From positions 34,332 to 98,331 of the forward strand of contig DASUEB010000025.1 of assembly GCA_036275295.1 (NCBI GenBank): a stretch of DNA of 64,000 nucleotides, read 5' to 3'. The notes below the pieces were generated by a model. The model had not been told where the DNA came from. It searched no databases and worked only from the letters and a program-made list of their open reading frames with translations. Origin of the DNA: Luteibaculaceae bacterium (lineage in GTDB: Bacteria; Bacteroidota; Bacteroidia; Flavobacteriales_D; Luteibaculaceae). Of the stretch, positions 20,749 through 22,990 are shown piece by piece. Numbering within the stretch: position 1 is the first letter of the stretch; each line of letters starts with the position of its first letter. The translations under genes and the position numbers were made by a program.

Positions 20749-21028
20749 ATTCAGATTGAATTTGTTTCGACAAAGGTCAGGCGAATGATTTATAAATTTT
20801 TATTTATAGTTTTTATTATAATAATATACTAAAATTTATAACATAGCGCAAATGCCGAATTTGGCTACGGAATGGGAACCACATCACGATGGGTAAAAGC
20901 GGTTTGCTGAGGGGATTTGGATTAATTCCCTTGAGGAGATTAGGCGAAGGCAACCTGGGGTTTTTCTGCGCATCGTGCATTTGAACAACCCGGGTGAATT
21001 AAGTAATTTAGAGCAGCAAATCCCTGTT

Positions 21029-22384
21029 ATGAAATTGTTGGTATCCATATTATGGCTTTTCACAAGTACATGCGCATGGGCAAGCCCTCGCTACCAATTA
21101 CACGTCAACCCTCTAGACTGCCCTGATTACGCCCAAACTCTTTCAGAAGTTTTGACCTATTTTAATCAACAACGTTGCCCGTTGGAAATCACAGTGGTAA
21201 GCTTACACAAGAAGATGGCAAGGCAGCAACTTCAGAGCATTGTCCAAGGTCAATGGACAGAATCACCATACATAACAGTACGTTCAACCGTAAAGGACTT
21301 AAACAGGCCAAATGCTGGTTACTCAAGACTGTTGATTAGCTTCAACGGTGACACGCTATATCACGCAGCCCTGTCTGATGTAAGACTTGAAGAGATTCAA
21401 CCCTTGATTCGCCAGCCACTTTCTGTCGTCAAAATCAGTGAAAATCCGCTTCATCCAAAAGTAAAGCAAGTGTTAAACCCCATTAATCAGCAATACACTC
21501 AATTGGATTCGATCAAGATATTTTACAGTAGTCTTTATCGCACCTTCACCACAGCACACGGTGATTCAGTGTACAAAACATGGGATTATCTCGATTCATT
21601 CAAGCAACTGCTAAAAAACTCGGGCAGAATGGGCACCATCCGACTGGATCGGCCATTTATAACTGCGCAAGGTATTTTTCTGAGTATCACCATGCAAAAA
21701 GAAATCAAAGAGCAGTATCTTGGTTTCATTGACAAAAACAACCTTGGAAAGCTTCAAGCCATCTGGAAATTATCCAATCCCGACAGCATTTATCCGTTGA
21801 CCGACCTCTCGTTTTACGTTAGTGGAGAACATTTGTACACTGCACTCCTACAAAGCGGCAACGACTCACTCGTGCGAGCACAAAAAGAGGATTTCCGAAT
21901 CTTAGGAAAGTTCACTTTCACAAATAACCAACTCAAGCTTGATGGTTTCACGGAAGAACGGCTGCATCCTTATTTTGTAGAGAACAATTTGGGTATATAC
22001 AACTCATTTCCGATTTTCCCAACCTCCACCGACAGTGAGTATACCTACGGATTCACCTATTACCCGGCGATTTTTAACAAGGGGGGATATCAACTTTATG
22101 ATCAGGCCTACCTCGATAGAATTAATTTGCGAGCACGGAAGCTAAAATTCAGGCCCTATAAATGTTTGGCTATCCACAAGGAAGGCAGTGATGTGTGGAT
22201 CATTGCTAAGATCCGGTCAGTCGATTACCTAATTTGGATGCATAACGGATTGGTGATAGATCGAATAAAACTCGCCAGACACCGCGATCTGACCACTTAC
22301 TCCATGAATTCGAAACAAATCCTTGTTTTCATTGGTAGAGTAATCGGATCCCCTCGAACTGAGACCTACTCATACCGCAATTGA
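21029..22384 (+). CDS. secreted protein, no recognisable family
   Basis: Start taken at MKLLVSILWLFTSTCAWA (signal peptide). Visibly AT-richer than its neighbours. Confidence 0.55.
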   Translation: MKLLVSILWLFTSTCAWASPRYQLHVNPLDCPDYAQTLSEVLTYFNQQRCPLEITVVSLHKKMARQQLQSIVQGQWTESPYITVRSTVKDLNRPNAGYSRLLISFNGDTLYHAALSDVRLEEIQPLIRQPLSVVKISENPLHPKVKQVLNPINQQYTQLDSIKIFYSSLYRTFTTAHGDSVYKTWDYLDSFKQLLKNSGRMGTIRLDRPFITAQGIFLSITMQKEIKEQYLGFIDKNNLGKLQAIWKLSNPDSIYPLTDLSFYVSGEHLYTALLQSGNDSLVRAQKEDFRILGKFTFTNNQLKLDGFTEERLHPYFVENNLGIYNSFPIFPTSTDSEYTYGFTYYPAIFNKGGYQLYDQAYLDRINLRARKLKFRPYKCLAIHKEGSDVWIIAKIRSVDYLIWMHNGLVIDRIKLARHRDLTTYSMNSKQILVFIGRVIGSPRTETYSYRN

Positions 22385-22441: not shown

Positions 22442-22902
22442 AGTTTCACTGGCGCGGCTGTTATAAGCCGCTTCGGCGAACAAGGCCCGCCATCGCTTCT
22501 CGACTGCGTCTCATAGCTTCGTTAAACCCAAATCTGTTATCTTACAATACATGTAACACCCCTTGCAGTGCGGACCTGTCCGCCGTAGCCCGTGGTTAGG
22601 AGTTTAAACGAGTTTTGATATGACAAGTTCACCTTCGCGGCTTGAAAAGCCGCTTCGGCGAGCAAGGCTCACCTTCGCTTCTCGACTGCGTCTCGAAGCT
22701 TCGGCGAGCAAGGCCCGGCTTCGCTTCTCGATTGCGTCTCGAAGCTTCGTTAAACCCAAATCTGTTATCTTACAATACATGTAATACCCCTTGCAGTGCG
22801 GACGTGTCCGCCGTAGCCCGTGGTTAGGAGTTTAAATGAGGCTTGGTATCATAAGCCCGCCTTCGCTTCTCGACTGCGTCTCGAAGCTTCGGCGGGCGAA
22901 GG
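22442..22902. repeat. about 2.3 tandem copies of a 185-230 bp structured non-coding element
   Basis: Copy 1 spans 22442-22612, copy 2 spans 22625-22840 (with an internal 46-bp duplication), and a partial copy spans 22851-22902. The motif TCGCTTCTCGAYTGCGTCTC..AGCTTCG starts at 22493, 22675, 22721 and 22863. Confidence 0.85.
22855..22897 (-). other. long imperfect hairpin 5 nt downstream of the tRNA-Ser 3' end
   Basis: GCCCGCC (22855-22861) pairs with GGCGGGC (22891-22897). There is an inner CTTC/GAAG stem and a 13-nt loop. Only a short T-run follows. Confidence 0.5.
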
Positions 22903-22990
22903 CGGAGAGAGGGGGATTCGAACCCCCGATACCCTTTTGAGGTATACACACTTTCCAGGCGTGCTCCTTCAACCACTCGGACACCTCTCC
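22903..22990 (-). tRNA. tRNA-Ser (anticodon GGA)
   Basis: Folded by hand: acceptor GGAGAGG/TCTCTCC, 3-bp D stem, anticodon loop CTGGAAA, long variable arm ATACC...GGTAT, T arm GGGGG-TTCGAAT-CCCCC, discriminator G. CCA is not encoded. Confidence 0.9.

Follow-up and report, generated by a model that had tools for sequence, protein, structure and literature searches.

The 3′ flank of the tRNA-Ser(GGA) gene of a Luteibaculaceae bacterium was analyzed within a 64-kb window, which here means the whole stretch of 64,000 nucleotides taken from contig DASUEB010000025.1. This is the sole tRNA gene placed in the window by ARAGORN and Rfam; its mature end has a discriminator G at 22903 followed by CC, with the CCA incompletely encoded. 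Because the gene lies on the minus strand, the sequence from 22442 to 22900 is its 3′ trailer and the RNA sense is minus. This trailer consists entirely of about 2.3 copies of a 182–228 bp unit, and the block that they form has icd, an ORFan, an asparaginase gene and tatD as its neighbors. Both hairpin types of the block are homologous to the leader of a small GIY-YIG nuclease cassette that sits behind tRNA and tmRNA genes in other Bacteroidia, which suggests that the block is probably a nuclease-less remnant of such a cassette.

Anatomy of the repeat block

A repeat search and Tandem Repeats Finder (TRF) bear out what a sequence-only reading of this DNA had proposed, namely that tandem repeats fill the whole flank of the tRNA. 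The search returned a 176-nt pair (22470–22645 and 22698–22873; 89% identity, spacing 228) and a 57-nt motif that occurs four times (starts 22465, 22647, 22693 and 22835), and the 20-mer TCGCTTCTCGAYTGCGTCTC is found four times in the block compared with zero times in 100 shuffles. The 46-bp internal duplication proposed for copy 2 was recovered by TRF as a nested 46-nt duplication of 2.1 copies (22652–22749). The two long copies are 89–97% identical and differ by substitutions and indels. The repeat ends 3 nt short of the ARAGORN tRNA 3′ end (TTC in tRNA sense, 22898–22900), and the units hold no tRNA sequence beyond GCC. In tRNA sense, the block reads tRNA-Ser, TTC, hairpin 1a, spacer, hairpin B2, A+U-rich spacer, hairpin 1b, hairpin 1c, GAA hairpin A2, spacer, hairpin B1, spacer, hairpin 1d and hairpin A1 (Table 1).

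All of the hairpins named in the sequence-only reading are present, including the long hairpin beside the tRNA. This tRNA-proximal hairpin 1a has the sequence GCCCGCC-GAA-GCUUC-GA-GAC-GCA-GUC-GA-GAAGC-GAA-GGCGGGC, preceded by TTC and followed by UUAUGAU, a weak U tract. Hairpin 1c, which belongs to the 46-nt nested duplication, is changed on both sides of its outer stem relative to copy a. In hairpin 1d the inner stem is broken (GCUAU/GAAGC) and GAU replaces GAA. Overall, three of the eight hairpins are well formed (1a, 1c and A2), and the remaining z-scores are about 0. The hairpin B word, GGGCTACGGCGGAC..GTCCGC, occurs in both copies of hairpin B.

The whole unit was found by blastn-short at a single locus only in its own genome, and the whole block is absent from 40 relatives, both congeners included. 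Exact 20-mer scans of 185,579 species genomes and of metagenome and viral collections returned only chance matches of 20–23 nt with dissimilar flanks. Rfam searches returned the tRNA and sub-threshold noise only. Nearly all other tRNA genes of this genome are followed by a hairpin and a T-run within about 40 nt, whereas tRNA-Ser(GGA) has none, and a consensus terminator scan of the block found no terminator. The block lies inside a 103-kb contig of a 2.69 Mb draft genome in 191 contigs.

Open reading frames (ORFs) drawn through the repeats are artefacts, as had been proposed: they have no Pfam match, one runs antisense through the tRNA, and a coding reading was rejected since the period of 46 nt is not divisible by 3. 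The motif GTTAAAC occurs at two unit borders, and an integron attC array of the CALIN type (cluster of attC sites lacking an integron integrase; GTTAAAC/GTTTAAAC borders) was also considered. Judged by reading the sequence, this was rejected, as the hairpins are local and there is no IntI, and the "cassettes" would measure about 85 nt and hold no ORF. The attC arrays used for comparison have imperfect palindromes of the form R''-L''...L'-R' with a GTTRRRY core, separated by cassettes and usually near an IntI gene.

Table 1. Coordinates of the block and its hairpins in the window, of related hairpins elsewhere in the same genome, and of tandem GIY-YIG arrays in other genomes (C, contig; G, genome; CM, covariance model).
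Feature	Position	Strand	Basis or remark
tRNA-Ser(GGA)	22901/22903-22990	minus	ARAGORN; Rfam RF00005, 51.7 bits
Whole tandem block	22442-22900	minus	repeat search and TRF
Block copy 1	~22442-22624	minus	
Block copy 2, with 46-bp internal duplication	~22625-22852	minus	
Block partial copy 3	22853-22900	minus	
TTC linker (tRNA sense) from RNA gene end ...CC to hairpin 1	22898-22900	minus	T[TC]C conserved in homologous cassettes (20 loci)
Hairpin 1 copy a, tRNA-proximal	22855-22897	minus	−29.2 kcal/mol, z = −5.1 (tRNA sense)
Hairpin B copy 2, GGGCUACGGCGGAC-AC-GUCCGCAC	22796-22819	minus	contains hairpin 22798-22811; 25-sequence consensus
A+U-rich spacer (..GGGGUAUUACAUGUAUUGUAAGAUAACAGAUUUGGG..) after hairpin B2	22758-22795	minus	position where a GIY-YIG ORF would be
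Hairpin 1 copy b, intact core, degenerate outer stem	22712-22757	minus	CM R1 73.7 bits; fold z −0.46
Hairpin 1 copy c, GCUCGCC...GGUGAGC	22667-22709	minus	−24.6 kcal/mol, z −4.1
Hairpin A2 (GAA/GAA), UCGCC-GAA-GCGGCUU-UUC-AAGCCGC-GAA-GGUGA	22629-22661	minus	pattern scan; z −2.7; contains hairpin 22637-22653
Hairpin B copy 1, GGGCUACGGCGGAC-AG-GUCCGCAC	22568-22591	minus	contains hairpin 22570-22583
Hairpin 1 copy d, distal, degenerate	22485-22530	minus	CM R1 71 bits; z −0.12
Hairpin A1, distal block end	22446-22488	minus	contains hairpin 22454-22471; z −0.44; outer stem and 3′ GAA gone
Four to five tandem GAA/GAA hairpins, 31 nt	C9:4873-5023		start at tmRNA 3′ end; third followed by T8
Single GAA hairpin behind tRNA-Leu(TAG)	C67:6328-6355		ahead of canonical terminator
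Tandem GIY-YIG array	G484:C34:6988-9769		
Tandem GIY-YIG array	G369:C2:234369-235262		
Tandem GIY-YIG array	G249:C2:179996-180706		

A GIY-YIG cassette at the 3′ ends of tRNA and tmRNA genes

More than 20 Bacteroidia genomes besides this one have hairpin 1 and then hairpin B directly behind a tRNA (Ser, Asp, Ala or Val) or tmRNA gene, and a gene for a GIY-YIG nuclease of 78–82 aa follows downstream of the two hairpins on the strand of the RNA gene. A class-wide scan revealed that the 15-mer TTCGCCCGCCGAAGC abuts the 3′ ends of tRNA-Ser in genomes G241 and G477 and of tmRNA in G127 and G204, and the first 15–20 nt of hairpin 1a are identical to the sequences of these four genomes. G477 and G241 also carry the hairpin B module GGGCTACGGCGGAC..GTCCGC. 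The tmRNA flanks of 30 relatives mostly hold ordinary terminators, while G025 has a variant of hairpin 1 (CCACC-TTCGCCCTAC-GAAGC...GC-GAAG-TAGGGC-TTTTT) and G127 has CCACC-TTCGCCCGCCGAAGCTTCGA...GCGAAGGCGGG-TTTTTT, 20 nt of which are identical to the tRNA-proximal hairpin of the window. A GIY-YIG gene (PF01541) is located 100–250 nt downstream in all five of these genomes (G241, G477, G127, G204, where it is a pseudogene, and G025), and no such gene was found within 1.5 kb of the other 27 tmRNA loci.

The same association was recovered from the protein side. A reverse profile search identified a strong subfamily in 26 of 301 Bacteroidia genomes, and at 16 of the 26 best loci ARAGORN places an RNA gene just upstream on the same strand (tmRNA at seven, tRNA-Ser at five, tRNA-Val at two, tRNA-Asp and tRNA-Ala at one each); nearly all of the other ten have a recognizable 3′-end fragment of a tRNA or tmRNA gene, or a contig end. 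A complete cassette spans about 370 nt and is made up, from the RNA gene onward, of T[TC]C and hairpin 1 (a G+C-rich stem with a symmetric GNA/GNA internal loop), a short spacer, hairpin B, the GIY-YIG gene and, in at least one case, one more short hairpin of the GAA type. Its protein matches no NCBIfam model and has at most 40% identity to phage proteins, and the cassette is not described in Rfam, NCBIfam or the literature searched, the coverage of which was incomplete. Within the same incomplete coverage, no paper was found that ties GIY-YIG genes to tRNA or tmRNA ends in Bacteroidetes.

Both hairpins show covariation between genomes. The consensus of hairpin 1 is T[TC]C-GCCCNNC-GNA-GC-[4-32 nt]-GC-GNA-GNNGGGC (20 loci), with pairing in 98.8% of cells and compensatory changes at four pairs, although the 3′ halves were chosen by complementarity and this figure is biased. 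An alternative pairing of the tRNA end and UUCGC with the 3′ half GCGAAGGCG was rejected, as no covariation links the 5′ TTC to the 3′ GNA over the 20 loci. Hairpin B, with the consensus GGGCU[AU]CGG[CU]GGAC..GUCC[AG]C, is located 15–60 nt before the GIY-YIG start codon. Its 25 sequences, which include both window copies and were selected without use of the 3′ halves, pair in 95.9% of cells, with compensatory changes at three of seven pairs and 18 double-change cells, and none of 500 shuffles was as good. Selection on structure, which the sequence-only reading had suggested from two pairs of hairpins that differ only in their loops, is thus supported by homologues from other genomes, whereas those two differences are not significant alone. 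Within the block, only 3 of about 92 positions distinguish the mid-segments, distal-copy z-scores are about 0, and the count of covarying changes over the four copies is no better than in shuffles.

A T-run stands behind hairpin 1 at no fewer than 11 of the 20 loci (>=11/20), and because such a run often follows, hairpin 1 is predicted to serve in these cassettes as the new intrinsic terminator for the RNA gene. Gene presence/absence polymorphism at a conserved locus is observed for the intact cassette in the genus of G127. Eight sister species have the tmRNA, an ordinary terminator hairpin, TTTTTTATT and a shared downstream gene; in G127, the only one with the cassette, hairpin 1 occupies the exact place of the sister species' terminator hairpin before the same TTTTTTATT, and the leader and GIY-YIG gene follow.

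Tandem units are found elsewhere too. Behind tRNA-Val in G322, the unit of hairpin 1, hairpin B and GIY-YIG gene is duplicated in tandem with the junction in the hairpin word CCCTCCGAA, and the array is closed by a short GAA hairpin. Related but weaker-scoring small GIY-YIG subfamilies form tandem arrays with periods of about 345–490 nt and up to seven or eight members in a row (Table 1).

In G477 (locus L120, contig C1, oriented copy 2300–2930), a direct repeat of about 135 nt, made up of CTCTCCGCC, hairpin 1 with a nested hairpin B and the spacer to the ATG, flanks the GIY-YIG gene and a complete tRNA-Ser(CGA), and the GIY-YIG reading frame continues into this tRNA. In G204 (L121, C39), a displaced tmRNA 3′-end fragment, about 1.1 kb from the full tmRNA gene, stands directly before hairpin 1. 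In G241 (L119, C1), a tRNA-Ser 3′ half with no full gene nearby occupies this position and adjoins an ORF whose N-terminus resembles a Bacteroidetes integrase arm-binding domain. The displaced fragments in G204 and G241 suggest further insertions at the same RNA genes.

Origin of the block

The homology of the repeat unit to the cassette leader goes beyond what the sequence-only reading had seen. On the strand of the RNA gene, the T[TC]C linker and hairpin 1 directly adjoin its terminal ...CC (22855–22900), hairpin B lies downstream of hairpin 1 twice (22796–22819 and 22568–22591), and hairpin 1a is a homologue of the putative terminator hairpin of the cassettes. There is no GIY-YIG ORF in the block at the expected 15–60 nt after hairpin B, and tblastn at E <= 10 returned nothing on the whole contig; the only GIY-YIG genes of this genome are two distant ones on another contig. 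Where the ORF would be, the spacer at 22758–22795 may hold relics of its first codons (ATGTAT) and last codons (AGATTT), as judged from a comparison by eye with G127, G025 and G322.

We therefore favor, as the probable explanation, that the block is the nuclease-less remnant of a tRNA/tmRNA-linked GIY-YIG cassette that was amplified by recombination between flanking hairpins. In the proposed mechanism, a cassette would have replaced the native terminator of tRNA-Ser. The nuclease ORF would then have been lost, unless the cassette came gene-less as a non-autonomous derivative, and the remaining unit (hairpin 1 copies, hairpin B and spacer) would have undergone tandem duplication, for which unequal recombination or slippage between near-identical hairpin words is the probable cause, with the later 46-bp duplication giving one additional hairpin 1. 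Any present function would be limited to termination or protection of the tRNA-Ser transcript by the proximal hairpin 1. Decay is under way in the distal copies, and the block as a whole is probably decaying DNA. By analogy, the parent cassette could be akin to free-standing homing-endonuclease-type or tRNA-end insertion elements.

Several points weigh against this explanation. With no GIY-YIG trace in the block, the loss of a gene is argued from position and from the resemblance of a few nucleotides, and the unit might never have carried a nuclease gene. What follows the proximal hairpin (UUAUGAU) is not a proper U tract, which makes its role as a terminator here uncertain. The pairing statistics for hairpin 1 carry the selection bias noted above, and the nesting of hairpin B within hairpin 1 in G477 indicates that the modules do not always come in the same order. 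The patchy distribution of the cassette and a single case of presence and absence within a genus suggest that it may be mobile.

We also put forward a broader proposal, tentatively and as a possibility that falls short of being probable. Hairpin 1, hairpin B and the mini GIY-YIG gene could together be an undescribed selfish, homing-type cassette that targets the extreme 3′ ends of tRNA and tmRNA genes in Bacteroidia chromosomes and supplies a replacement terminator. Nuclease breaks and GNA-bulged hairpins would then drive tandem amplification and gene loss, the window would hold an amplified "solo leader" end state, and the solitary GAA hairpins behind tmRNA and tRNA-Leu of this genome would be further relics.

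Genomic context

The genes tatD, asparaginase and tRNA-Ser are syntenic across the family, while the sequence after the tRNA varies. This flank is a synteny break: an exbB-like gene directly follows the tRNA in four genomes from three other genera, whereas in this genome the repeat block, a convergent 469-aa ORFan and icd follow. The ORFan (20975–22384, plus strand) has a G+C content of about 0.43 compared with 0.50–0.53 around it; it has no Pfam domain, and its only match among 5.8 billion proteins is itself. In the congener G001 (L018, C2 1831–3429), tRNA-Ser(GGA) is followed by a canonical terminator and a tyrosine integrase with Arm-DNA-bind_5, SAM_5 and Phage_integrase domains, behind which a two-component system is encoded; this region looks like an island at the same tRNA. 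The sequence-only reading was right about the tRNA 3′ end as a hotspot for foreign DNA. In a second genome of the genus (G002; L019, C4), the asparaginase gene is present and no tRNA-Ser was found within 6.5 kb.

Short GAA hairpins in the same genome

Covariance model and pattern scans revealed a shorter relative of hairpin 1, with the order outer stem, GAA, GC, loop, GC, GAA, outer stem. About 18 copies of this short core hairpin, often in tandem, were found at about 12 loci of the genome (CM R2), and three of these loci are directly 3′ of stable RNA genes, namely tmRNA (C9), tRNA-Leu (C67) and tRNA-Ser. The C9 hairpins have the sequence CAUCCGCC-GAA-GCCUUUGGC-GAA-GGCGGG. Other copies occupy several intergenic sites, some of them interleaved with heptamer arrays. 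Comparison of 14 members shows that the outer stem covaries, with GAA/GAA invariant. A second model found the short family in 33 of 151 Flavobacteriales genomes, with up to 22 copies, and in none of eight genomes of the same family.

Near contig ends, at C54:8941–9190 and C141:2361–2595, short GAA hairpins and an 83-nt long form with a 60-nt loop insert alternate with TATCACG/TTTCACG heptamer arrays; these repeats probably break the assembly. A link between the tRNA-Ser block and such heptamer arrays was rejected, as the block has no heptamers. The two Y1_Tnp genes of the genome (C25:3739–4083, minus strand, and C133:8542–8886, plus strand) are each flanked by palindromes GTCGCNCCTACGGAGC / CGACCCCTACAGGGTCG, which may be a separate REP-like (repetitive extragenic palindromic) family.

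Alternative explanations

The short hairpins raise the question of whether the block is a cluster of a self-spreading REP-like palindrome, comparable to a bacterial interspersed mosaic element (BIME), possibly mobilized by a Y1 transposase of the RAYT (REP-associated tyrosine transposase) or IS200-like type and with no link to GIY-YIG genes. The recurrence and frequent tandem arrangement of the core hairpin, its position 3′ of three stable RNA genes, its patchy distribution and the covariation of its outer stem would all fit, and one of the two PF01797 genes of the genome has a GGA/GAA hairpin about 160 nt away (C25). The REP-like character suggested by the sequence-only reading holds for this core hairpin to that extent. 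It does not extend to copy number, which is far below that of REP families (typically >100), or to inverted or alternating pairs, as the tandem copies are all direct, and a cognate RAYT is doubtful, as the palindromes flanking both Y1 genes are mainly of another type (GTCGCNCCTACGGAGC). The long unit is confined to a single locus, and the subfamily with TTCGCCCGCCGAAGC and hairpin B is tied to GIY-YIG genes in five of five independent cases and by the reverse protein search, so we regard a BIME-like origin as unlikely. A structured 3′ external transcribed spacer (3′ETS), or structured small RNAs co-transcribed with tRNA-Ser, processed, and with a function of their own as sponge or regulator, would account for the orientation of the hairpins, all of which are in tRNA sense, with the purine GAA/GAA and GA/GA internal loops only on that strand. 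Folds in this sense are more stable than antisense folds (−29.2 versus −25.1 kcal/mol for hairpin 1a, −24.6 versus −17.6 kcal/mol for 1c, and z = −3.6 versus −2.25 for the whole block), no strong terminator separates the tRNA from the block, and both hairpin types covary across genomes. Such a function is nevertheless quite improbable for a block that is unique to this genome, that has five of eight hairpins degenerate with z near 0 and that matches no Rfam family; in other genomes, the same hairpins form a terminator and the leader of a protein gene, not free-standing RNAs.

Stacked attachment (att) scars, or the decayed end of a genomic island that carried an integrase and inserted more than once behind tRNA-Ser at its 3′ end, would be consistent with the synteny break and its lower-GC ORFan, with the tyrosine integrase after the same tRNA in G001, and with the displaced tRNA-Ser and tmRNA 3′-end fragments at the cassette loci of G241 and G204. 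Scars of this kind, which the sequence-only reading had listed among its options, would be bounded by a direct repeat of the tRNA 3′ end (the att core). The repeat units have no tRNA sequence beyond GCC, and a tRNA 3′-end 24-mer (<=3 mismatches) and 12-mer (<=1 mismatch) match only the tRNA itself in the 64-kb window, with no second tRNA 3′ end. There is also no integrase beside the block, nor was one found near the homologous hairpins and cassettes in five genomes, which largely refutes this idea and leaves it very improbable. The near identity of the long copies (89–97%), indicative of a recent duplication, and the 191-contig draft would equally suit an artefact of assembly or an ordinary terminator region that was duplicated locally by chance. 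However, two separate modules homologous to those of the block are found together, and in the same setting, across many distant genomes, which makes chance a very remote prospect, and an artefact is unlikely given that the block lies inside a 103-kb contig and that its copies differ by substitutions and indels, unlike collapsed or expanded repeats.

Comparison with known systems

Islands and integrative elements at tRNA and tmRNA 3′ ends use tyrosine integrases, such as NBU2 at tRNA-Ser in Bacteroides. The cassette shares with them the target, a tRNA-Ser or tmRNA 3′ end, and the displacement of the native downstream sequence and terminator. In contrast to these islands, it lacks both an integrase and a tRNA 3′-end direct repeat, measures only about 370 nt when complete, and has its junction after the ...CC of the RNA gene, not inside the gene.

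Like intrinsic terminators, hairpin 1 is G+C-rich, immediately follows the RNA gene and has a T-run at the majority of loci given above. It is distinguished from them by a conserved symmetric GNA/GNA internal loop, the conserved 5′ TTC and an interior of variable length (4–32 nt); in the window, moreover, it is present in several copies and has a poor U tract. Small RNAs derived from the 3′ETS of tRNA transcripts also exist, for example 3′ETS-leuZ of E. coli. The block resembles these in that it would encode a structured RNA within a tRNA transcript's 3′ trailer, but it is species-specific and partly degenerate.

REP and BIME elements with their RAYT transposases (PMC2817692, PMC3116915) are similar to the short hairpins in being short imperfect palindromes with a conserved mismatch that are extragenic, clustered, often downstream of genes, and patchy in distribution. 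The short hairpins differ in having about 18 copies and not hundreds, in direct instead of alternating orientation, and in that the RAYT-like genes are accompanied mainly by a different palindrome.

If the block is such a remnant, it is the visible footprint of a wider cassette present in 26 of the 301 Bacteroidia genomes sampled, or about a tenth, and for annotation the cassette accounts for the "orphan" repeats and false ORFs that turn up downstream of their tRNA genes. The closest parallel is SegB of T-even phages, a free-standing GIY-YIG homing endonuclease that is often tRNA-associated and causes its own locus to undergo segmental amplification in tandem (PMC13096335). SegB and the cassette have in common a GIY-YIG gene habitually beside tRNA genes, a tendency to tandem amplification by short-homology recombination, truncated nuclease copies in the repeats, and accessory presence and absence. 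The cassette is chromosomal, always abuts an RNA-gene 3′ end, has a conserved two-hairpin leader, and encodes a protein of 78–82 aa that is only a catalytic domain without a DNA-binding domain; the window itself has no nuclease gene. Should the cassette prove to home, it would extend the tRNA-linked GIY-YIG phenomenon known from SegB to bacterial chromosomes, show concretely where the species-specific arrays of hairpins at stable-RNA genes come from, and represent a testable selfish element that is forced to preserve the termination and 3′ processing of an essential RNA.

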